Below are positions 14,823-26,859 of a stretch of 26,859 bases of DNA, one piece after another (positions within the stretch are counted from its first letter, which is position 1; the number at the start of each line of letters is the position of its first letter). Source of the stretch: Clostridia bacterium (GTDB taxonomy: Bacteria; Bacillota; Clostridia; Christensenellales; Aristaeellaceae). The notes under the pieces are model-generated. The model saw only the letters and a list, made by a program, of their open reading frames with translations. It searched no databases and had not been told where the DNA came from. The stretch covers positions 1-26,859 of the forward strand of contig JAFWBZ010000402.1 of NCBI GenBank assembly GCA_017537105.1, in the 5' to 3' direction. A program made the translations under genes and the position numbers.

Positions 14823-15818
14823 CTACCGAAATACCTGGCAGGGGATGCCCTCCCGCTCGAAGACGTCGAGGAAGTATTTCGGCGCGGCGGCCTCGTCGAA
14901 CTCCGGCGCGTAGGTCCGCCCCACCATGTCGTACTTCGCCCCGGCGGCCCGCTGGTAGGGCAGCACATCCACCCGCACCAGCGACTTCGCGCCTTTGACC
15001 AGTTCTGCCACGGTTTCGAAGTGCTCTCGTTCGTCGTTGACGCCGGGGATGATGGGCATGCGCAGGATGAAGGGCGTGTCCCCCGCGGCCAGCATCCGGG
15101 CGTGGCGGCGGATGGGGGCCTGGTCCACGCCGGTGTAGCGCCGGTGTGCCTCCGGGTCGGATACCTTCCAGTCCATCATCACCAGGTCCAGCTTCTCCAT
15201 GACCTGCGCGAACACCGCGTCGGTGGTGAAGCCGCTGGTCTCGACGGCGGTGTGCACGCCCGCCAGCCGGTCGAGCACCCCGGAGACGAAGTCCCACTGT
15301 AACAGCGGCTCGCCGCCGGAGAAGGTCACGCCGCCGCCGGTGGCGCGGAACACGTCGGCGTCCTTGTTGAGCCGCGCGGCCAGGTCCTCCGCGGTCCATG
15401 CCGTGCCGGCGATCTTCCGGAAGCCGCCCCGGCACGCCGGGACGCAGGCGCCGCAGGCGGTGCAGCCCTTGGGCTGCCAGCAGCCGCCCGTTGGGACTTC
15501 GGCGCCGAGGGGACACGCCCGTTCGCAGGCCCCGCAGTGCACGCAGGCGGCGGTGGAGACCATCAGCTGCGGCTTTGGCGACAGGCCTTCCGGGTTGTGG
15601 CACCACTGGCACCTGAGCGGGCAGCCCTTCATGAACACCGTGGTCCGGATGCCCGGACCGTCGAACACGGCAAATTCCTTGATGTCGAATACGATGCCCA
15701 CAGCAGTCGCGCCATTACGCGCTTGCGCGGGCGCGGCCAGCCCGCGCTGGAATCCGCAGGATTCGTGCGGCGCTGTCGCCGCTTGCCCTTTGGGCTGTAG
15801 CGGTGATGCGTTACTCAT
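14823..15818 (-). CDS. Glycyl-radical enzyme activating enzyme (radical SAM) with a ferredoxin-like insert
   Basis: FDGPGIRTTVFMKGCPLRCQWCHNPE (CX3CX2C); two CX2CX2CX3C motifs (CVHCGACERAC, CTACGACVPAC); GGVTFSGGEP, HTAVETSG, RMPIIPGVND. The start is uncertain: ATG 15818 overlapping the GRE stop, or GTG 15701. Confidence 0.93.
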   Translation of the reverse strand: MSNASPLQPKGQAATAPHESCGFQRGLAAPAQARNGATAVGIVFDIKEFAVFDGPGIRTTVFMKGCPLRCQWCHNPEGLSPKPQLMVSTAACVHCGACERACPLGAEVPTGGCWQPKGCTACGACVPACRGGFRKIAGTAWTAEDLAARLNKDADVFRATGGGVTFSGGEPLLQWDFVSGVLDRLAGVHTAVETSGFTTDAVFAQVMEKLDLVMMDWKVSDPEAHRRYTGVDQAPIRRHARMLAAGDTPFILRMPIIPGVNDEREHFETVAELVKGAKSLVRVDVLPYQRAAGAKYDMVGRTYAPEFDEAAAPKYFLDVFEREGIPCQVFR

Positions 15819-17839
15819 ACGAGCAGCTCAGCCCTTCGGATGATGTGGTCCTGGTAGCACTTGTCCAGCTCCACGAAGTAGCCGCTCCAGCCCCACACGC
15901 GCACGATCAGGTTGCGGTAGTTCTCCGGGTGTTTCTGGGCATCCAGCATGCGCTCGCGGTTGACGGTGTTCAGCTGCAGCTGGTGGCCGCCCCGCTGCAC
16001 GAACAGCCGCACCAGCTGGGCCACCTTGGTGATGGACTCCTCCTGGCTGAACACGCTGTCGGAGAACTCGATGGTCAGCGGGCCGCCATTGATGGTCCGG
16101 CGCAGGTCGGGCTTGGAGAAGCTCTTGATCAGCGAAACGGGGCCGTTCAGCCGGATGTTCAGCGAGGGCGCGTAGTTGGCCGGCAGCGGCACGCCCGCCT
16201 CCCGGCCGTCCGCGGTGGCGCCCAGCTCGTTGGCGTGGAAGATGTAGAACATGGCCGAGCCCGTGCCCGCGCGAATGATGCCGCCGCGCTCGTTGTGGAG
16301 TCCCTCCACGGCGTCCGCGAAGGTGTCCAGCAGCCAACCCACGAGACCGTCCACCCGGTCGTCGTCGTTGCCGGCCTTGGGGCAGTGGTATTTCAGCTGA
16401 TCCCGCAGCGCGTCGTGGCCCACGAAGTTGTCCGCCATGGCCCGCAGCAGCGCCTCCGGCGCGGTATCGCCGTGGAACACCTCCTGGTCCACCGCCGCCA
16501 GCATGTCCGCCGCCGGGGCGACGCCGGTGCCGTGCAGACCCCAGTTGTTGTATTTGCAGCCCAGGGAGATGTCCCGGCCGCTTTCCAGGCAGCCGTCGAA
16601 GAACAGCGACAGGTAGGGCGAGGGGATGACGTACAGGTTCCTCCGCTCCGCCAGGGTCTTGCGCACGTCGGCGAAGATCGCCTCCCGCACGAGGGCCTTG
16701 ACCTCCTCGAGAGAGCGGCAGGCGGTCAGGTGCTCCCGGAGCACCCGGTCCACGATGTTGGCGAAGGGCAGCGCGCCGATGTTCACGATGTCCATGGCGC
16801 GGCCGGGGATGATGAACTCCCAGCAGGCCGCCATGGCGTAGTTTCGGGCGTCCTCTGTGTCGTAGCCCAGCGCCTCCAGGCCGGGGATGGCCACGTCGTC
16901 GTTCTCGTACTGGGGGAAGCCCAGGCCCAGCTTCGTCAGCTGCGTGCCCAGCTCGTACACCTCCAGCGGCGTGTCCTTATTCACCCGCAGGTTGATCTTC
17001 GGGTCGATCAGCCGAAGCTCCGCGGAGGCCTTCAGACACCACTTCGACAGCAGGTTGAAGCCGTCCGTGCCGTCGGGCAGCATGCCGCCCAGCACGATGC
17101 TCTGGCCGTTGTCGCCCTGCTGCATGCCGGGGTACAGGTCGCTGTCCCGGTTGCAGGCGAGGAAGAAGGCCTCCAGCAGCTCGAAGGCGCTCTCCTCGGT
17201 CTCCCGGCCGGCCTCCAGGTCGGCCCGGAGGTAGGGGATCATGGTCTGGTCGAAGCGGCCCATCGTGTTGTGGTAGTCGCCCTCGCACCACATGGCGTAG
17301 TGCAGTATCCGCAGCGACTGCAGCGCCTCCCGGAAGGTGCGCGGCGGCAGCGCCGGCACCCGGTCCAGCACCTCCGCCAGCGCCTCGTCGCCCTTTGCCC
17401 GGGCGGCGGCGGCGTAGCGCGCCGTCAGCTTTAGCACCGCGTCGATGGAGATGCGCATGGCCCGGTGCAGCTCGCCCTCGCCCAGTTTTTCCCGCCACGC
17501 CAGGAGGCCCACGGAGATCACGGAGGCGTAGTCCGGCGACAGGTTGGACACGTTGCCCAGCTCGTGGATGAAGTGCCCTTCGGTGATGGCGGCCCACTCC
17601 GCGTCGTCGAAGATGCGGGGTAGATTCGGCACCGTGCGGGTGAAGGCGATGATCTCGTTGTCAAACAGGTACGGCGTCTCCATCTCAAGCGCCTGCTTCA
17701 GCCGCAGCGCCGTGCGAAGGGTGTCCGGCAGGGACCGGTCCCGGTAGGTCAATTCGAGGTCCTCCGGCAGCGCGATGCGCGCGGCGTGGTGCAGGCGCTC
17801 CCACTGGAAGTGCATCAGGGCCCGTATGCGTTCCGTCAT
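15815..17839 (-). CDS. Glycyl radical enzyme (PFL superfamily), uncharacterised, 674 aa
   Basis: RBS AAGGAG. GRFDQ, DPKINLRV, Cys loop YAMAACWE (C339/E341), GNDDDRVD, GATADGR.AG.PL, and C-terminal DAQKHPENYRNLIVRVWGWSGYF (glycyl radical site G650). Confidence 0.93.
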   Translation of the reverse strand: MTERIRALMHFQWERLHHAARIALPEDLELTYRDRSLPDTLRTALRLKQALEMETPYLFDNEIIAFTRTVPNLPRIFDDAEWAAITEGHFIHELGNVSNLSPDYASVISVGLLAWREKLGEGELHRAMRISIDAVLKLTARYAAAARAKGDEALAEVLDRVPALPPRTFREALQSLRILHYAMWCEGDYHNTMGRFDQTMIPYLRADLEAGRETEESAFELLEAFFLACNRDSDLYPGMQQGDNGQSIVLGGMLPDGTDGFNLLSKWCLKASAELRLIDPKINLRVNKDTPLEVYELGTQLTKLGLGFPQYENDDVAIPGLEALGYDTEDARNYAMAACWEFIIPGRAMDIVNIGALPFANIVDRVLREHLTACRSLEEVKALVREAIFADVRKTLAERRNLYVIPSPYLSLFFDGCLESGRDISLGCKYNNWGLHGTGVAPAADMLAAVDQEVFHGDTAPEALLRAMADNFVGHDALRDQLKYHCPKAGNDDDRVDGLVGWLLDTFADAVEGLHNERGGIIRAGTGSAMFYIFHANELGATADGREAGVPLPANYAPSLNIRLNGPVSLIKSFSKPDLRRTINGGPLTIEFSDSVFSQEESITKVAQLVRLFVQRGGHQLQLNTVNRERMLDAQKHPENYRNLIVRVWGWSGYFVELDKCYQDHIIRRAELLV

Positions 17840-18082: not shown

Positions 18083-19102
18083 ATGCACAACGGGCGCAGA
18101 AAGGTGACGCTGCGGGACCTGGCGGAGGCCACGGGCTTCAGCGTGAACACGGTCTCCCGGGCGCTGCGGGGCGAGAAGCGCATCGCGCCGGAGACGCTCC
18201 AGAAGATCCTGGAGGCCCAGGCCCGCATGGGCTACATCCACAACACGCTGGCCTCCTCGCTGCGGCGCGGCTACACCAACACCATCGCGGTGATCCTGGG
18301 CGACGTGTCCAACCCCCACTTCGGGGTGATGATGAGCGAGATCGAGGCCCGGGCCCGCGCCCGGGGCTACGCCGCCTTTCTGCAGACCACCAGCGAGGAC
18401 GAGGCGCTGGAGCGCGCCGCGATCCAGTCTGCGGTGAACAAGAGCGTGGACGGCATCCTCATCTGCCCCTGCCCGCAGAGCGGGCAGAACCTGCACACGC
18501 TGGCGTCGCTGGGCATCCCCTTCGTGCTGGTCGGGCGGCGCAGCGCCGCGGTGGACGCCGACTACGTGATCTGCAACGACGAGCTGGGCGGCTGGCAGGC
18601 CACCCGGGCCCTGATCGAGCGCGGCCACCGGCGCATACTGATGCTGCAGGGCGATCCGGAGATCTCCAGTGCCCGGGAGCGCCTGGCGGGCTACCGCAGG
18701 GCGCTGGACGAGGCGGGCATCGAATATGACCCGCGCCTGGTGCGGGAGGGCTCCGTCATGGGCAAGGACAACGAGGCGCTCTACGCGCAGATCCTCTCGG
18801 AAGATCTGGGCTTCACCGCCGCCTTCGCCTTCAGCGACCTCATCGCCTGGGACTTCTGGCGCTTCCTGCACGGCCGGGGCATCGAGGTGCCGCGGGATCT
18901 CTCCTTGGTGGGCTTCGACAACATCCAGTCCCGGCTGTCCATCCCCTTCGGGCTCACCTCCATCCGCACCTACAAGGGCCGCATGTCCGTGGAGGCCGTG
19001 GACCTGTTGGTGCGCCGCATGCGCGGCGAGGGCGATCCCGCGCCCGCCCGCGTGGTCATCGACACCGCCCTCGCGCCGGGGGAGACGGTGCGGACCGTCT
19101 AA
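18083..19102 (+). CDS. LacI-family transcriptional regulator, divergent from the GRE operon
   Basis: HTH VTLRDLAEATGFSVNTVSRALRG, MGYIHNTLASSL, and VPRDLSLVGFDN...LTSI. Confidence 0.95.
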   Translation: MHNGRRKVTLRDLAEATGFSVNTVSRALRGEKRIAPETLQKILEAQARMGYIHNTLASSLRRGYTNTIAVILGDVSNPHFGVMMSEIEARARARGYAAFLQTTSEDEALERAAIQSAVNKSVDGILICPCPQSGQNLHTLASLGIPFVLVGRRSAAVDADYVICNDELGGWQATRALIERGHRRILMLQGDPEISSARERLAGYRRALDEAGIEYDPRLVREGSVMGKDNEALYAQILSEDLGFTAAFAFSDLIAWDFWRFLHGRGIEVPRDLSLVGFDNIQSRLSIPFGLTSIRTYKGRMSVEAVDLLVRRMRGEGDPAPARVVIDTALAPGETVRTV

Positions 19103-19151: not shown

Positions 19152-19193
19152 CGCCGGCCGCGCCGCACCCCAACGGCGCGGCCGGCGCTTTTT
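19152..19193 (+). terminator. Rho-independent terminator after LacI
   Basis: 14-bp perfect stem CGCCGGCCGCGCCG / CGGCGCGGCCGGCG followed by CTTTTT. Confidence 0.8.
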
Positions 19194-19219: not shown

Positions 19220-19248
19220 TTGACTTGATGTGTTTTTTGTGTTATCTT
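19220..19248 (+). promoter_or_regulatory. Putative sigma-A promoter for the metF-like/etfBA/methyltransferase operon
   Basis: TTGACT (19220-19225), 17 nt, TATCTT (19243-19248), with an extended -10 TG. Confidence 0.7.
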
Positions 19249-19306
19249 TGGATGGGACCCAGGGAAAGTCGCGCCGCAGGCGCAAGGCAGGGGGAGTGGA
19301 GTGCGC

Positions 19307-20131
19307 ATGGGAGAAGCCGTCGGGCCGCGAAGCTATCACATTGAAATCATACCGCCCAAGCAGGATTCGCAGAAGCTGGAGGCGGACCTGGAGCTGTTCG
19401 CCGGGAAGTTCGAGCGGGTGATGGAGAGCGGCTTTACCGCCTCCATCACGGACAACGCCATGGGGCTGTTGGCCTTCCAGGGACACGAGTGCATCGAGGA
19501 GCTCGGCCTGCGGGTGCGGCCGGAGCAGGTGCTGATCCACCTGAACACGTTTCACACGAAGCGCAACCTGGACGAGATCCTGGAGGCCTGCGGGCGGCTC
19601 GGCATCCGCTCCCTGCTGGCCATCAGCGGGGACGGCTCGCCCCGGCTGCCGAGGCTGCAGCCCGCGGACGTGGAGGCGGAGGGCGCCCCGGCGGTCACGT
19701 CGGTGGAGCTGATCCGCTATCTCCGCAGGCACTATCCCGAATTTGCGGTGGGCGCGGCGTTCAACCCCTACGAGCCGGAGGCGCACGAATTCGACAAGCT
19801 CGAGCGGAAGCTGGACGCCGGGGCGTCCTTCCTCATCACCCAGCCGATCCTGCGGAAGAACGCCGTGGTGGACCGGCTGCTGGCTGCCCATCCGGAGGTG
19901 CCGACGATCCTCGAGGCGTGGATGTCGAAGAAGCTGTACCTGCTCTCAGACGTGGTGGGCTATCCCATCCCCGAGGACGCGGAATACGACCCCTTCGCCA
20001 CGCTGGAACAGCTGCAGGCGACGTACCCGCAGTGCTCGTTCTACCTGTCGCTGCTGGGATTCAAGACGCAGTATGCCCGGATCGAGGAGATGGCCGGTCC
20101 GGCGCGCGCGGAACAGGAGGAGCGCCTATGA
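19307..20131 (+). CDS. metF: Methylenetetrahydrofolate reductase (MetF/MTHFR)-family flavoprotein, divergent (274 aa)
   Basis: Conserved MTHFR positions are retained: IEIIPPK (cf. S.EFFPPK), IHLNT (cf. PHLTC), LAISGD (cf. LALRGD), VGAAFNP, KLERKLDAGASFLITQP. Start ATG 19307 after GGAG (track start GTG 19301). The symbol denotes the family, not proven orthology. Confidence 0.8.
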   Translation: MGEAVGPRSYHIEIIPPKQDSQKLEADLELFAGKFERVMESGFTASITDNAMGLLAFQGHECIEELGLRVRPEQVLIHLNTFHTKRNLDEILEACGRLGIRSLLAISGDGSPRLPRLQPADVEAEGAPAVTSVELIRYLRRHYPEFAVGAAFNPYEPEAHEFDKLERKLDAGASFLITQPILRKNAVVDRLLAAHPEVPTILEAWMSKKLYLLSDVVGYPIPEDAEYDPFATLEQLQATYPQCSFYLSLLGFKTQYARIEEMAGPARAEQEERL

Positions 20132-20916
20132 AGATCGTGGTGTGCATCAAGCAGGTCCCGGCGACCAGCGACGCCTCCATCGATCCCGTGACCAAGCGGA
20201 TCGTGCGGGAGGGCAGCAAGGCGATGCTCAACCCCTTCGACCTGTACGCGGTGGAGGAGGCCGTGCGCCTGAGGGAGCAGGCGGGCGGCGAGGTCATCGC
20301 CCTCTCCATGGGGCCGGAGAGCGCCAAAAACGCGCTGGTGGAGGCCCTGTCCATGGGCGCGGACCGGGCGGTGCTGTTGAGCGACCGGGCCTTCGGCGGC
20401 TCCGACACCTGGGCCACCAGCTACGCGCTGGCCCGGGCCATCGACACCCTCGGCGGCGTGGACCTGGTGATCTGCGGCAAGCAGGCCGTGGACGGCGACA
20501 CGGCGCAGGTGGGCGCGGGTATCGCCGCGAAGCTGGACCTGCTGCAGGCCGCGAACGTGGGGAAGACCGAGGCGCTGGACGCCGACGGCATCACCGTGCG
20601 GCGGATGCACGAGCGGGGCTGGGACGTGGTCCGGCTCCGGTTCCCGGCACTGATCACTGTGCTGAAGGACATCAACGCGCCCCGGGTGCCCACGCTGCGC
20701 GCCGCCCGGGCCGCAAGGCGGGCGGAGATCCCCGTCTGGCATCCTGCGGACATCGGCGCGGACCCCGGCAGGATCGGCCTGCGGGCCTCGCCCACCCAGG
20801 TGGTCCGAACGGCCCCGCCCGCGGCGAGGAGCGCGGTCACCACGAGGATCGCGGGCGCGCCGGCGGAGGTGGCCGGGGAACTCGTCCGGGAACTGCTGGC
20901 CCGGAAGCTGCTGTGA
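20128..20916 (+). CDS. etfB: Electron transfer flavoprotein beta subunit
   Basis: MKIVVCIKQVP, LNPFDLYAVEEA, SMGP, ALSMGADRAVLLSDRAFGGSDTWATS, GKQAVDGDTAQVG. Its ATG overlaps the metF-like stop (ATGA). Confidence 0.95.
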   Translation: MKIVVCIKQVPATSDASIDPVTKRIVREGSKAMLNPFDLYAVEEAVRLREQAGGEVIALSMGPESAKNALVEALSMGADRAVLLSDRAFGGSDTWATSYALARAIDTLGGVDLVICGKQAVDGDTAQVGAGIAAKLDLLQAANVGKTEALDADGITVRRMHERGWDVVRLRFPALITVLKDINAPRVPTLRAARAARRAEIPVWHPADIGADPGRIGLRASPTQVVRTAPPAARSAVTTRIAGAPAEVAGELVRELLARKLL

Positions 20917-20931
20917 AGGGAGGCGCGACCC

Positions 20932-22005
20932 GTGAAGCTGACAGGAGAACAGGACAGGCAAAACTCCGCGGACGTGTGGGTGCTGGCGGAGATGACGGGC
21001 GGCGCGCTGCATCCCGTGTCCCATGAGCTGCTGGGCGCGGCCCGGCGGCTGGCGGCGGACCGCGGCTGCAGGGTGTGGGCCGTGGCGCTGGGGAGTGACC
21101 TCTCCGACGCGGCGGCGTCGCTGATCGCCCACGGCGCAGACGGCGTCATCCTGGTGGGGGACGGGCGGCTGCAGGCGTTCAACGACGAGCTGGAGTGCAA
21201 CGTGCTGGAGCGGCTGGTGCGCAAGTACCGCCCGGAGATCTTCCTCGGCGCGGCCACAAATCGGGGCCGGGCGCTGATCCCGCGGCTGGCCAGCCGGCTC
21301 TACGCCGGGCTGACCGCCGACTGCACCGGGCTGGCCATCGACCCAGAGACCGGGGATCTGCTCCAGACCCGGCCGGCCTTCGGCGGCAACATCATGGCCA
21401 CCATCCGCAGCGGCGGCTTCCGTCCGCAGATGGCCACGGTCCGCCCCAAGGTGATGCAGGCGCTGCCCGGGGACCGGACCCGGTCGGGCATGGTGGTGCG
21501 GGAATCCGTGGCGCCGGAGGACGCCCTGCACATCAAGCAGATCCTGGAGACCATCGAGCGCCGGGAGAACACGGTCAACCTCAGCGACGCCCGCATCATC
21601 GTCGCCGGCGGCCGGGCGATGAAGGGGCCGGAGGGCTTCGCGCTGCTGGAGTCCTTCGCGCAGCGGATCGGCGGCGCCCTGGGCGCCAGCCGCGCGGCGG
21701 TGGACAGCGGATGGATCGCCTATCCCCATCAGGTGGGGCAGACCGGGCAGACCGTGCAGGCGGACGTCTACATCGCCTGCGGCATCTCCGGCCAGATCCA
21801 GCACCTGATCGGCATGCAGTCCTGCAAGACCATCGTCGCCATCGACATCGACGACACCACGCCCATGATGCAGCTGGCGGACATCGCGGTGAAGGGCGAC
21901 CTGTTTGCGGTGATCCCGGAAGTCATGAAGGCGCTGGATCGGGCGGGCGTCCGCCGGGCCCCCGCGTCCACGGAGGCAGATACAGAGGAGGAAGAGCAAT
22001 GCTGA
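20932..22005 (+). CDS. etfA: Electron transfer flavoprotein alpha subunit
   Basis: GTG start after GGGAGG; GLTADCT, QTRPAFGGNIMATI, QMATVRP, ARIIVAGGR, GASRAAVDSGW, QVGQTG, YIACGISGQIQHLIGM. Confidence 0.95.
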   Translation: MKLTGEQDRQNSADVWVLAEMTGGALHPVSHELLGAARRLAADRGCRVWAVALGSDLSDAAASLIAHGADGVILVGDGRLQAFNDELECNVLERLVRKYRPEIFLGAATNRGRALIPRLASRLYAGLTADCTGLAIDPETGDLLQTRPAFGGNIMATIRSGGFRPQMATVRPKVMQALPGDRTRSGMVVRESVAPEDALHIKQILETIERRENTVNLSDARIIVAGGRAMKGPEGFALLESFAQRIGGALGASRAAVDSGWIAYPHQVGQTGQTVQADVYIACGISGQIQHLIGMQSCKTIVAIDIDDTTPMMQLADIAVKGDLFAVIPEVMKALDRAGVRRAPASTEADTEEEEQC

Positions 22006-22805
22006 TCATCGGTGAAAAGCTGAACGGCGCCATTCCGTCGGTGGCGCAGGCGATACGGGACCGCGACGAGGGCTTCATCCGGGACCTGGCCACCCGGCAG
22101 CTGGACAGTCGGGCGGATTACCTGGACATCTGCTCCGGCGTGCCCGGGCAGGACGCCGAGATCCTTAGGTGGATGATCGAAATGATCCAGGCGGACCACC
22201 CGGACGTGCGCTTCAGCCTGGACAGCCCCGACCCGGAGGTGATTCGGTCGTGCATGGAGCTGTGCAAAAATCCGGGCATGATCAATTCCGTCTCCCTGGA
22301 GGGGAAGAAGATCGAGCTGCTGTTCCCCGTCGCGGCGGAGCAGAAGGGCTGGAAGATCATCGCGCTGCTGCTGGACGGCACGGGCATGCCCACCACGGTG
22401 GAAAAGCGCATGGAGACCTGCCGCACGATCCTGGACCGGGCCGCGGAATACGGCATCCCCGCGGGCCGGCTGTACTTCGACCCGCTGGTGTTCAGCCTGG
22501 CCACCACGCCGGAGGGCTTCCTCAACTTCGTCGGTGCGGCGCGGCAGATCCGGGCGGAGACCCCCGAAGCCCACATCGTCAGCGGGCTCTCCAACATCTC
22601 CTTCGGCCTGCCCTACCGCAAGGCCGTCAACCAGGCCTTCCTCATCGGCGCGATGATGAACGGCATGGACAGCGCCATCATGGACCCCCTCAACCGGGAC
22701 CTGCTGGCCGGCGTGTACGCCGCGGAGGCGCTGCTGGGCCTTGACGAATACTGCATGGAATACCTGACCGCCTACCGCGAGGACCTCTTCGGCCCGAAGA
22801 AGTAG
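21999..22805 (+). CDS. Methyltetrahydrofolate:corrinoid methyltransferase (AcsE/MT2-type pterin-binding TIM barrel, 268 aa)
   Basis: This is the 3' part of track ORF 21195..22805. RBS GAGGAGG; MLIIGEKLNG, ADYLDI, SLDSPD, MINSV, FDPLV, SGLSNISFGLP, GMDSAIMDP match the AcsE / MetH pterin-binding family. It overlaps the etfA stop by 7 nt. Confidence 0.88.
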   Translation: MLIIGEKLNGAIPSVAQAIRDRDEGFIRDLATRQLDSRADYLDICSGVPGQDAEILRWMIEMIQADHPDVRFSLDSPDPEVIRSCMELCKNPGMINSVSLEGKKIELLFPVAAEQKGWKIIALLLDGTGMPTTVEKRMETCRTILDRAAEYGIPAGRLYFDPLVFSLATTPEGFLNFVGAARQIRAETPEAHIVSGLSNISFGLPYRKAVNQAFLIGAMMNGMDSAIMDPLNRDLLAGVYAAEALLGLDEYCMEYLTAYREDLFGPKK

Positions 22806-22823: not shown

Positions 22824-22855
22824 GGCGCGCCACGGCAACGTGGGGCGCCCTTTTT
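22824..22855 (+). terminator. Rho-independent terminator closing the four-gene operon
   Basis: GGCGCGCCACG-GCAA-CGTGGGGCGCC (one mismatch) followed by CTTTTT. Confidence 0.7.
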
Positions 22856-22972
22856 GATCCCTCGTCCGGGAAGCGGCGCCGGAGAGGTCGCGGCCCTTCT
22901 TCCGGAAAGAATATGAAAGGACGGGCGGATCCCCGCCTGATCTCCACGAGGGCCGGGCGGGCTCCGCCGTGA

Positions 22973-23902
22973 TCAGAGCATCAGGCACGTCTGCCCGTCC
23001 ACCCACGACGCTTGAGGAACATCATGGATGCGGTCTCCCTCCCTGTAGTTCCCGATCAAAAACGGGGATTTGGGGTCGTGAAGCCGACTCTGCGCCAGCA
23101 CCTTTGCGGGCTCCGCGTTTGCGTAGCAATACCTGCAAAGGTGTTTGCAGGTGTTGTATGCGCCGATATCACAGGAAAGGTAGCAGGCGCACTCGGCCCG
23201 CGCGCCCTTCCTCTTTGGGGCGTTCAGGCGTTTGCCGATGGCCTTCTCATAATCGCTGATCCGCATACAGCCGCCGCAGTCTGCGCCGCAGACCGCCAGC
23301 TCATCCCCCTCCGCGCAGGGCTTGACGGTCATGCCGTGGGTCGAGGCGATTTGAATCATTCCCTTCCCCAGGGCCAGCCGCTGTTCCCGGAGAACCTCCC
23401 GCGCTTCCGGGAAATTCCTTCTGACCTTCGGATAGAGGTCAATGAAGCTGATCACTGCGGTTTTTGTGTACCCGTCAAGCGCGGAAGCGATCCGGTCAAA
23501 CGCCCGGAGATGGTAATCAAGGGTATACCGCGCCGAAAGGAAGATCGGATCAAAGCGCCAGCCGATGGAACGGGTGCCAACCGCGTCGGACAGCCTTTTG
23601 AAGTCGTCCAGCAGCCGGTGCTTGTCCGGGACGTTCGGCTCGATATCGCGCCCATAGGGTGTGATCGTGACGAACCAGTACTGGCCGTAATCCTTCAGCA
23701 GATCCATGTGCGGAAACATCGGGGCGGGATTCTTGGTACAGAAGCCGATGACGTCGACGACGGACGGATCGAGGCGGTACCGGCTGACCTGGTTCGGGTC
23801 GTAGGGATTGCGAACGCAGACAAATCCCTCTTTCAGCCGGTTCGCAAACCACTCGGCATAGAAGGCCGGAATATCCGTCCTCTGTCCCGTATTGATGATC
23901 AT
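22973..23902 (-). CDS. DUF1848-like protein with a C-terminal CX3CX2C motif (309 aa)
   Basis: AGGAGG RBS before ATG 23902; MIINTGQRTDIPAFYAEWF, VRNP, FCTKNP, WRFDPI, ISFIDLY, and CACYLSCDIGAYNTCKHLCRYCYAN match the DUF1848 pattern. Confidence 0.8.
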   Translation of the reverse strand: MIINTGQRTDIPAFYAEWFANRLKEGFVCVRNPYDPNQVSRYRLDPSVVDVIGFCTKNPAPMFPHMDLLKDYGQYWFVTITPYGRDIEPNVPDKHRLLDDFKRLSDAVGTRSIGWRFDPIFLSARYTLDYHLRAFDRIASALDGYTKTAVISFIDLYPKVRRNFPEAREVLREQRLALGKGMIQIASTHGMTVKPCAEGDELAVCGADCGGCMRISDYEKAIGKRLNAPKRKGARAECACYLSCDIGAYNTCKHLCRYCYANAEPAKVLAQSRLHDPKSPFLIGNYREGDRIHDVPQASWVDGQTCLML

Positions 23903-24298
23903 ATCGCCGCACCTCCTGTCCTTCTCCGGCTGCGCTTTCATAAGGAGCATGGATCTGATTCCATCCCGGAATCTGCGCAGAGCGGTTCAGCCCGAAAGCC
24001 CTGCCCTTCGCCAATCCCCGGCCGGGCTGTCGGGACGGGACGCCCGGAGAGAGCGATGTCTCCGCCCCCGGTACGCCCATTGAGCACTACGGCTTTCCTT
24101 TGCGAATTCCTCCTTTTGAGAGGTTAACAATTTGTTTTCTTCGCGGGCCCGGCACTGCGGAGCCTCTCCATAAAAGGCCCCGGTATGGCCCTTGGCCACG
24201 GCAAAACACCCCCGGCAGAACTGCTTCCGCCCGCGGCGAAAGCCCTCGAAGAGCGCATTCTCCATTCGTGGGTTTTTCAAAAAATCTCCGCCGGGGTA

Positions 24299-24327
24299 TT
24301 GACAGATCCCCGCCCCGGGAGTATAAT
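24299..24327 (+). promoter_or_regulatory. Consensus sigma-A promoter of the metal-resistance operon
   Basis: TTGACA (24299-24304), 17 nt, TATAAT (24322-24327). Confidence 0.9.
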
Positions 24328-24328
24328 C

Positions 24329-24354
24329 AACATATGAACAGTTGTTCATATGTT
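24329..24354. promoter_or_regulatory. ArsR/SmtB-family 12-2-12 operator
   Basis: AACATATGAACA-GT-TGTTCATATGTT, a perfect inverted repeat over the expected transcription start. This is the canonical SmtB/CadC/CzrA box architecture. Confidence 0.9.
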
Positions 24355-24368
24355 TGGAGGTGAGGCGC

Positions 24369-24725
24369 ATGGAGGAGCGCATCGAGTGCTGTGACGAGCA
24401 CCGCGTGCATCCGGAGATCGTGACGCACGTGAAGCTGGACATGCCGGACGAGGAGCGGCTCTACGACCTGGCGGAGCTGTTCAAGGTGTTCGGCGATTCC
24501 ACGCGCGTTCGCATACTGTACGTGCTGTTCGAGTCGGAGATGTGCGTGTGCGACCTGGCGGAGCTGCTGGGCATGACGCAGTCGGCGATTTCCCACCAGC
24601 TGCGGGTGCTGAAGCAGGCGAAGCTGGTGCGGGCGCGCCGGGAGGGCAAGACGGTGTTCTACTTCCTGGCGGACGATCACGTGCGCACGATCATCGGGCA
24701 GGGCATGGAGCATCTCTGCGAATGA
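24369..24725 (+). CDS. cadC: ArsR/SmtB-family metal-sensing repressor (CadC/ZiaR-like)
   Basis: GGAGG RBS before ATG 24369; CCDEH N-terminus, LFKVFGDSTRVRIL, EMCVCDLAE, TQSAISHQLRVL, and alpha5 site DDHV...EHLCE. Confidence 0.88.
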   Translation: MEERIECCDEHRVHPEIVTHVKLDMPDEERLYDLAELFKVFGDSTRVRILYVLFESEMCVCDLAELLGMTQSAISHQLRVLKQAKLVRARREGKTVFYFLADDHVRTIIGQGMEHLCE

Positions 24726-24772
24726 CGGACCCAATCGGGCGGCGGCCCATGAGAATACAGGAGGGAAGACCG

Positions 24773-24991
24773 ATGAAGAAGACCTACAGGATCGACGTGG
24801 ACTGCGCGAACTGCGCGAATCTGATGGAGGAAGCCGCGAAGAAGACCCCCGGCGTAAAGGACTGCGCGGTGAGCTTCATGACCCTCAGGATGAAGGTCGA
24901 GTTTGAGGACGGCGCGGACGCGGAGCGGGTGATGCAGGACGTGTACGCCAACTGCAAGAAGGTCGAGGCGGACTGCGAAATCGAACTCTGA
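24773..24991 (+). CDS. Stand-alone heavy-metal-associated (HMA) domain protein (72 aa)
   Basis: GGAGGG RBS; MKKTYRIDVDCANCANLMEEAAKKTPGV... carries a CXXC metal-binding motif. Confidence 0.85.
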   Translation: MKKTYRIDVDCANCANLMEEAAKKTPGVKDCAVSFMTLRMKVEFEDGADAERVMQDVYANCKKVEADCEIEL

Positions 24992-25185
24992 ACCATTCGC
25001 GCAAAACCTGTGGATTTTGCGCGAGTGAGGGGGAGCGCGGTTTGCTGAAAACCCTTTGGATTTTCCGGGCGCAAACCTGACAGGCAGGTATTGATTTCCA
25101 GGCGTGACGGACACGATTGGAGCTGCAGCGGCCCCGTCCCCTCGATTCGGACGGGGCCGACCCTTCGACGAAAGGACGATGCGGG

Positions 25186-26859
<1,674 letters not shown>

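Follow-up and report, generated by a model that had tools for sequence, protein, structure and literature searches.

A conserved gene module joining a divergent methylene-tetrahydrofolate reductase homologue to an electron transfer flavoprotein of predicted bifurcating type

A four-gene unit in a rumen-type Clostridia genome

We analysed a stretch of 26,859 nucleotides (nt), hereafter the window, which is contig C293 of a 2.57-Mb metagenome-assembled genome (MAG) of rumen-type Clostridia. Completeness of the MAG is 67%, which limits all claims of absence from it. The window has a G+C content of 67%, and real reading frames were distinguished by their third-position G+C. Its + strand carries, at 19301-22805, four tightly packed genes. 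They encode a protein of the methylene-tetrahydrofolate (methylene-THF) reductase (MTHFR) family, here named MetFL, both subunits of an electron transfer flavoprotein (Etf), and a methyl-THF:corrinoid methyltransferase (MT2):

19307-20131, + strand: metFL, from ATG (274 aa) or from the in-frame GTG at 19301 (276 aa); PF02219
20128-20916, + strand: etfB, small Etf subunit; PF01012, 149 bits
20932-22005, + strand: etfA, large Etf subunit; PF01012 and PF00766
21999-22805, + strand: MT2, pterin-binding methyl-THF:corrinoid methyltransferase, 268 aa; PRK07535

An earlier note on this DNA had described the genes as translationally coupled, and the coordinates of both overlaps hold. The etfB start (ATG, 20128-20130) and the metFL stop (TGA, 20129-20131) share the ATGA at 20128-20131, while the MT2 start (ATG, 21999) overlaps the etfA stop (22003-22005) as ATGCTGA. 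The etfA gene starts with GTG at 20932, 15 nt past the etfB stop, and is preceded by AGGGAGG.

Conserved gene order and natural fusions

In a scan of one genome per species, 215 species had a relative of MetFL; we examined the best 80 loci, which span rumen Clostridia, Oscillospiraceae, termite-gut Treponema, Atribacterota, Limnochordia and others. Synteny of metF-like, etfB and etfA genes, proposed in the earlier note as a check, turned out to be near-universal. Directly 3' of metFL lies etfB in 71 of the 72 loci with room for it, at a median gap of 30 nt, and etfA is likewise in place in 64 of 65. MT2 is present in 37 of the 45 loci with room on both sides, directly adjoining in 32. Identity to the window proteins co-varies across loci, with r = 0.86 for MetFL and EtfB and r = 0.83 for MetFL and EtfA. 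The linkage of metFL to etfBA is not due to chance. Other recurrent neighbours are formate-THF ligase (FTHFS; 19 of the 80 loci), the formate/nitrite transporter FocA (13/80) and FolD (4/80); corrinoid proteins, URO-D-family methyltransferases, CobW and RACo also occur near metFL.

A search with the concatenated MetFL~EtfB sequence recovered natural fusions of two kinds, which together make up more than 40 protein clusters. MetFL::EtfB proteins form 12 clusters (525-542 aa, 54-64% identity over the whole query) and EtfA::MetFL proteins about 30 (605-635 aa), one of which has 372 members. Examples include a 480-kb scaffold, seen on 6 contigs, and 4 contigs across the NCBI, Logan and ENA collections. 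The EtfA::MetFL proteins have a different gene order; slippage at the ATGA overlap does not account for the fusions. Direct contact is suggested by MetFL being fused to each of the two Etf subunits.

Three further observations concern unusual or distant relatives. P0279 (735 aa, from one JGI contig) is an apparent Pterin_bind-MTHFR-ETF triple fusion whose domains are covered only in part; it may be either a genuine MT2::MetFL::EtfB fusion or the product of misassembly or a frameshift. At L123:1-6813, a distant MetFL homologue (43% identity) ends an etfB-etfA-DAO/Fer2_BFD-Pyr_redox_2-DUF1667-FGGY (glycerol-kinase-like) operon, which is a second, different Etf context for the subfamily. The contigs of two other distant homologues, P0133 and P0144, are too short for their context to be judged.

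Within the genus the picture is different. We found no close MetFL in 24 congeneric species, and vertical conservation was rejected as an account, as the operon was found neither there nor in the 31 species searched at the DNA level. The downstream DUF1848/ArsR/P-type-ATPase flank (22981-26859) is 77-85% identical in most of these 31 species, and MT2 paralogues occur in congeneric species at about 67%. The segment metFL-etfBA (19301-21983) thus looks like an accessory element of the genus, possibly a transferred insertion.

MetFL, a compact and divergent MTHFR-family protein

MetFL matches PF02219 at 52.6 bits (cut-off 24) over residues 11-184 only. Against the MetF equivalog TIGR00676 it scores 41 bits, below the cut-off of 293.7, so that it has no full-length curated match and counts as no more than a divergent MetF-family member. 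Its database twin, P0005, is also 274 aa long. The AlphaFold2 model of MetFL (pLDDT 92, pTM 0.89) has the eight strand-helix units of a (beta-alpha)8 barrel. All of the top 24 Foldseek matches in the PDB are MTHFR-fold entries, with TM scores of 0.61-0.67 and 17-22% identity to solved MTHFRs. They come from fungi, H. influenzae, Thermus, E. coli and mycobacteria, together with two chains of 3ijd. FAD-dependent MTHFRs match the fold at a TM score of 0.66, FAD-independent mycobacterial ones (7wmz, 8qpj) at 0.51-0.61, mostly about 0.56. The 3ijd entry is Cthe_2304 of C. thermocellum, an uncharacterised MTHFR-like barrel crystallised with two 5-methyl-THF molecules; at a TM score of 0.61 and 13% identity, it is a fold match of MetFL and no sequence relative.

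In an alignment of 33 MetFL and canonical MTHFR sequences, E15, G110-D111 and T180-Q181 are invariant. We take E15, D111 and Q181 to be the counterparts of the catalytic E28, D120 and Q183 of E. coli MetF. Fold and catalytic residues of an MTHFR are thus both present. The helix-5 segment R169-K170-x-D-A-G-A is kept as well, as are G110-D111 and T50; these positions are presumably FAD contacts in canonical MetF. The flavin of MetFL itself is a prediction.

About 25 residues after strand 7 of canonical MTHFRs are missing from MetFL. The earlier note had considered the C-terminal part divergent, and described this part as the one that binds NADH in the E. coli enzyme. Divergent it is, and shorter; the description is loose, since NAD(P)H shares the folate site over the flavin in MTHFR (PMC8760232).

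Close relatives of MetFL number more than 1000 in the database. At E<=1e-30, exhaustive searching yielded 24 clusters (50% identity), and the first full-length, MTHFR-sized matches came only at about E 1e-7. MetFL belongs to a compact, strongly conserved subfamily, separate from full-length MTHFRs.

A separate clan of Etf with bifurcating-type motifs

EtfB contains GKQAVDGDTAQVG and SDTWAT, and EtfA contains TRPAFGG (R147), exactly the motifs from which a two-FAD, bifurcating Etf had been predicted; TRPAFGG is kept in 51 of the 51 orthologues checked. The stretch DGDTAQVGA at EtfB residues 122-130 matches eight of the nine positions of DGDTAQVGP, and the full motif is found in 50 of 54 MetFL-linked EtfB orthologues. 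DGDTAQVGP is the recognition stretch for b-FAD, diagnostic and absent from non-bifurcating Etfs (PMC9232219). EtfA is devoid of an N-terminal ferredoxin domain.

We compared both subunits with solved bifurcating Etfs (CarDE 6fah, LctBC 7qh2, C. difficile 5ol2, A. fermentans 4kpu and T. maritima 7koe) and with AMP-containing ones (human-type, Paracoccus and Methylophilus). EtfB scores 211 bits with 6fah_B, 208 with 7qh2_B, 194 with 5ol2_B, 189 with 4kpu_B and 188 with 7koe_A, against 64-95 bits with AMP-containing Etfs (human ETFB, 95). For EtfA the ranges are 218-297 bits with the five bifurcating references (7koe_B 297, 6fah_A 281) and 94-138 with the AMP-containing ones (human ETFA, 138). 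Scores about twofold higher to every solved bifurcating Etf, together with the b-FAD motif, bear out the predicted type: judged by its sequence, EtfBA is a bifurcating-type Etf. Placement in an Etf phylogeny, also suggested beforehand, yielded a maximum-likelihood tree in which the 19 sampled MetFL-linked EtfBs, that of the window among them, form one clan (support 100/99, stem length 0.79), set apart from the Bcd-linked EtfBs that these genomes encode.

MT2 and the corrinoid methyl-transfer genes of the MAG

MT2 matches the NCBIfam model PRK07535 (methyl-THF:corrinoid/iron-sulfur protein methyltransferase) at 290 bits, with a cut-off of 259. Its closest solved relative by far is the 4o0q/4o1e/4o1f set (268 bits, full length); AcsE-type methyltransferases (2yci, 1f6y) score 135 bits and MetH pterin domains 59-63. 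We take 4o0q, 4o1e and 4o1f to be the MT2 of a Desulfitobacterium hafniense O-demethylase. In published work, 4O1E and 4O1F serve as CH3-H4F- and H4F-bound (H4F, tetrahydrofolate) templates for the methylcorrinoid:H4F methyltransferase CdmA (PMC13222342). Sequence comparison thus places MT2 closest to demethylase-type methylcorrinoid:THF transferases.

A candidate source of methyl groups lies on another contig of the MAG, C112 (L126:424-10620). There, next to an AraC gene of divergent orientation, a minus-strand operon codes for a sugar-type ABC transporter, two URO-D/MtaA-CmuA-like methyltransferases, a RhaM-like protein, a corrinoid protein and a stand-alone homocysteine S-methyltransferase (PF02574). 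The corrinoid protein is TIGR02370-like (194 bits, below the cut-off of 215) and scores 193-194 bits with catabolic MtgC/MtbC types, against 129 with MetH. The operon is a candidate for corrinoid-dependent demethylation of a methylated (deoxy)sugar. A RACo-like fragment was located on C292 by tblastn (38% identity over 346 of 616 residues), and the MAG has PFOR genes; no PF02965-like match was found in it with the L127 query. On scaffold L127, orthologues of the C112 genes (43-66% identity) stand in one cluster with MT2-etfB-etfA::metFL, which ties the window operon to the C112 methyl-transfer set. This co-clustering favours a flow of methyl groups from corrinoid to THF, followed by oxidation. 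The transfer from a corrinoid protein to THF, suggested earlier from the four genes alone, fits the MT2 type and the presence of URO-D methyltransferases, a corrinoid protein and a RACo-like fragment in the same MAG.

Etf partners and folate metabolism in carrier genomes

Gene content was counted in 26 carrier genomes. In 15 of them the metFL-linked pair is the only Etf pair, and acyl-CoA dehydrogenase (PF00441) is absent from 17. Seven other Etf pairs could be matched to a PF00441 match, and all adjoin an acyl-CoA dehydrogenase gene; five further pairs (in G051, G061, G064, G065 and G066) were left unpaired or fell outside the neighbour count. The window has no gene for an acyl-CoA dehydrogenase, an LctD-type oxidase, MetV, Rnf or Hdr, in agreement with the view that the unit offers the Etf no alternative partner. 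The MAG as a whole has one Etf pair and one MTHFR-family gene, and PF00441, PF02913 and PF12225 were not found in it.

PF02574 proteins occur in 24 of the 26 carriers. Most carriers with MetFL as their sole MTHFR have homocysteine methyltransferases, some as fused MetH, so many hosts must run the reductive, anabolic direction too. We rejected a Wood-Ljungdahl context: acetyl-CoA synthase (PF03598) is present in only three of the 26 carriers and was not found in the MAG of the window. The module is therefore mostly found in genomes without detected acetyl-CoA synthase, beside genes of the folate methyl branch.

An Rfam search of the window gave no match, and no SAM riboswitch or T-box lies directly upstream of metFL in 20 related loci, among which there is one SAM riboswitch 3 kb upstream and one T-box. 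As a test of an anabolic role this was uninformative, because MetH-type loci of the same genomes are also without any. The riboswitch (L074:3959-4069, in a relative from the same taxonomic order) precedes three open reading frames of the size of metNIQ, the methionine ABC transporter.

Transcription signals and neighbouring genes

The following features flank the four genes:

18083-19102, + strand: LacI-family regulator gene, ending before the terminator; PF00356, PF00532 and PF13377
19152-19197, + strand: intrinsic-terminator-like hairpin (19152-19187) and T-run; 14 GC pairs, 8-nt loop, tail CTTTTTCC
19220-19248, + strand: sigma-70-like promoter candidate TTGACT-17-TATCTT with extended TG; 9/12 matches
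about 22824-22856, + strand: terminator-like hairpin GGCGC.CCACG(GCAA)CGUGG.GCGCC followed by CUUUUUG; minimum free energy -24.6 kcal/mol, z -1.9

The hairpin at 19152-19187 closes the LacI gene and insulates the operon from upstream; the regulator itself may or may not control the operon. Two promoter-like sites were found, against 0.4 expected in shuffled sequence. The hairpin 3' of MT2, missed by a consensus terminator scanner, is plausible but weak as a terminator. With an upstream terminator, a promoter-like site and a downstream hairpin with U-run located, these predicted signals fit a single unit, for which one promoter and one terminator had been proposed.

Contigs from four RNA libraries span the operon and cross all three gene junctions. 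Flanking genes and terminator regions are covered equally, so DNA carry-over is possible and transcription is not proven. Near-identical DNA is frequent in bovine and sheep gut metagenomes. Further upstream in the window (14823-17839, - strand) are genes for a glycyl-radical enzyme (674 aa, PFL-like and Gly_radical) and its radical-SAM activase, with a second LacI gene alongside.

Proposed reaction and points that weigh against it

We now propose, with some reserve, that MetFL and EtfBA together work as one dedicated Etf-dependent methylene-THF reductase / methyl-THF dehydrogenase, probably coupled to both NAD and ferredoxin. There is good support for a dedicated complex, whose physical association we infer from conserved linkage and fusions. 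MetFL would be the folate-binding catalytic barrel, presumably with a flavin of its own, in the role that Bcd, CarC or LctD plays elsewhere. EtfB would hold the NAD(H)-reactive, bifurcating b-FAD, and a-FAD in the mobile EtfA domain would shuttle single electrons to and from MetFL. The reaction would read: CH3-THF + reduced ferredoxin + 2 NAD+ <-> CH2-THF + oxidised ferredoxin + 2 NADH. Its ferredoxin coupling, the second FAD and flavin content in general, and its direction are all expected by analogy.

Standard potentials are -320 mV for NAD and about -450 mV for ferredoxin. That of the CH2-THF/CH3-THF couple is about -200 mV (PMC8760232), almost equal to that of pyruvate/lactate, which makes a reaction of the type of Ldh-EtfAB, the electron-confurcating lactate dehydrogenase, the likeliest one. 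With these values the con- or bifurcating reaction would be near equilibrium and reversible, as it is for Ldh-EtfAB. In the MAG of the window, the co-translated MT2 would load THF with methyl from a methyl-corrinoid protein, itself charged by the URO-D-family methyltransferases of C112, whereupon MetFL-EtfBA would oxidise the methyl-THF towards methylene-THF. Carriers that have no MTHFR other than MetFL must also rely on the complex for a reductive supply of methyl-THF.

Several observations count against this proposal. Two canonical flavin motifs are changed in MetFL (TYGA to TDNA, LRGD to ISGD), so that a flavin in the protein is putative. The last residue of the b-FAD motif in the window EtfB is A, not P, and two-FAD Etfs may be non-bifurcating, as in C. 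propionicum (PMC9232219). An AlphaFold2 model of a MetFL::EtfB fusion (P0267, built on a 12-sequence alignment) reached a pTM of 0.52, with a low-confidence linker and EtfB arm, and no interface was readable in it. One examined locus alone, L067 in genome G050, has MetFL and no adjacent Etf. This genome also has a canonical MetF, and its only Etf pair adjoins an acyl-CoA dehydrogenase; in the vicinity of its MetFL are FocA and a URO-D gene. No DNA match to metFL-etfBA was obtained in the 31 congeneric species, the 67%-complete MAG yielded neither FTHFS nor FocA, and for the RNA-library coverage we cannot exclude DNA carry-over. Finally, MetFL is the sole PF02219 match in about 15 of the 26 carriers, where a plain anabolic role would explain its retention.

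Alternative explanations

This last point leads to the alternative that we take most seriously, unlikely as we judge it. EtfBA may be a mere NADH-oxidising module, non-bifurcating, which serves a MetFL devoid of its own pyridine-nucleotide site (compare RnfC2 in type III MTHFRs), and methyl-THF would be made for methionine. In the MAG of the window, where MetFL is again the sole PF02219 match, methionine synthase would then be in three pieces: MT2, the corrinoid protein of C112 and the free-standing homocysteine S-methyltransferase. The prevalence of PF02574 proteins among carriers agrees with this, as does the form of the homocysteine methyltransferase in this MAG and in rumen relatives: stand-alone (about 282 aa) and adjoining a corrinoid protein. 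Reduction of CH2-THF by NADH is exergonic and needs no coupling, and C. thermosuccinogenes, to our knowledge not an acetogen, has metFL-etfBA without MT2. However, MT2 is far nearer to a demethylase-type transferase than to MetH pterin domains (268 against about 60 bits), the corrinoid protein is nearer to catabolic MtgC/MtbC than to MetH, and genes for RACo, URO-D methyltransferases, FTHFS and formate transporters are grouped with the module. A bifurcating-type Etf would also be an elaborate donor for a step of low flux. As a general explanation we rejected the split MetH, because several carriers have, besides MT2, a fused MetH (S-methyl_trans + Pterin_bind) with a pterin domain of its own; a side role of this kind is possible in the MAG of the window.

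Two other explanations concern MetFL itself. It could be a flavin-free folate barrel, over whose folate the a-FAD of the mobile Etf domain docks and exchanges hydride directly; if so, the Etf would be part of the active site and not a one-electron shuttle to a partner flavin. The altered flavin-contact motifs speak for it, as does the existence of FAD-independent MTHFRs, entries for which (7wmz, 8qpj) turned up in the fold search, and the EtfA::MetFL fusion attaches MetFL to the C-terminal end of EtfA, which is part of the shuttle domain (domain scheme in PMC9232219). We nevertheless hold it to be improbable: RK-x-DAGA, G110-D111 and T50 agree with the presumed FAD-contact positions of canonical MetF, FAD-dependent MTHFRs are the better fold matches (TM score 0.66, against 0.51-0.61), and every known Etf partner has its own flavin. 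Still less probable, in our estimate, is that MetFL is no methylene-THF reductase at all and acts on another pterin or a non-folate substrate, or that the Etf serves an unlinked partner and adjacency reflects co-regulation only. Such a reading could draw on the PF02219 match to only the N-terminal two thirds, on a MetF equivalog score of 41 bits against a cut-off of 294, on the 17-22% identity to solved MTHFRs, and on the distant homologue (43% identity) that ends a glycerol-3-phosphate-dehydrogenase-like/Etf operon. It has to contend with the invariant catalytic Glu, Asp and Gln, with the constant company of the folate enzymes MT2, FTHFS and FolD, with the many MetH-containing genomes whose only MTHFR-family gene is metFL, and with the fusions to both Etf subunits, which point to direct contact.

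Comparison with known systems

The closest working analogue of the proposed MetFL-EtfBA complex is Ldh-EtfAB (LctBCD) of Acetobacterium woodii (7qh2; PMC9232219). Both have a bifurcating-type EtfBA with the b-FAD motif, the window EtfB scoring 208 bits with LctB, and the partner couples lie at about -190 and -200 mV. The reaction logic, in which substrate and reduced ferredoxin together reduce 2 NAD+, would be common to the two. They differ in the partner, which is an FAD-linked oxidase in LctD and a TIM-barrel MTHFR-family protein here, and in the N-terminal [4Fe-4S] ferredoxin domain of LctC, which the window EtfA lacks. Bcd-EtfAB (5ol2, 4kpu) and CarCDE (6fah) share the Etf architecture (CarD 211 bits, CarE 281 bits), and the EtfA of Bcd-EtfAB is likewise without a ferredoxin domain. 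Their partners, however, have the acyl-CoA dehydrogenase fold, and the Bcd-linked EtfBs form a separate clan; the partner substrates are of high potential, which makes their reaction strongly exergonic.

Four types of MTHFR have been described in anaerobes (I, MetF; II, MetVF; III, MetVF-RnfC2; IV, MetVF-HdrABC-MvhD), with Etf unmentioned (PMC8760232). MetFL shares with them the MetF-family barrel, the catalytic Glu/Asp/Gln and the expected reaction. In types II-IV, MetF relies on an added module for electron input; MetFL apparently does likewise, but its module would be an Etf. MetV, RnfC2, Hdr and Mvh were not found with MetFL in the window, nor PF12225 in the MAG, and the absence of MetV places the unit outside the MetVF types. 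Coupling of EtfAB to MTHFR had been considered in C. ljungdahlii and rated a 'small possibility', on the ground that there is no free etfAB and each set has a neighbouring dehydrogenase (PMC8515935). Applied here, the same argument points the opposite way, towards Etf-MTHFR coupling.

Known corrinoid demethylase systems consist of a URO-D-superfamily MT1, a corrinoid protein, MT2 and a RACo-type activator. Besides an MT2 that aligns over its full length with 4o0q, the MAG has candidates for the rest in URO-D/MtaA-CmuA-like methyltransferases, an MtgC/MtbC-like corrinoid protein and a RACo-like fragment. Known systems feed methyl-THF to the Wood-Ljungdahl pathway, while acetyl-CoA synthase was not detected in this MAG; and unlike in those systems, MT2 is co-translated here with Etf and an MTHFR.

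Altogether, the Etf-coupled MTHFR module is real, conserved and apparently undescribed. The earlier note knew of no biochemically described MTHFR-ETF complex, nor did full-text searches of the literature turn up an account of a metF-etfBA cluster or complex; they left out most subscription journals, so that novelty is not proven. How the methylene-/methyl-THF step is coupled in anaerobes has been debated since 1977. If our proposal is correct, the module would be a fifth type of MTHFR beyond the published four, and a TIM-barrel folate enzyme would be a new class of partner for bifurcating Etfs. MetFL-EtfBA is directly testable, as its three proteins are small and soluble and the natural fusions could serve as ready-made complexes. 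It would explain how rumen, termite-gut and digester bacteria without detected acetyl-CoA synthase can oxidise methyl-THF against an unfavourable potential or, alternatively, how reduced ferredoxin is gained during methylene-THF reduction. For the rumen-type bacterium of the window, it suggests that methyl groups released by corrinoid-dependent demethylation, possibly from methylated sugars, enter the folate pool.

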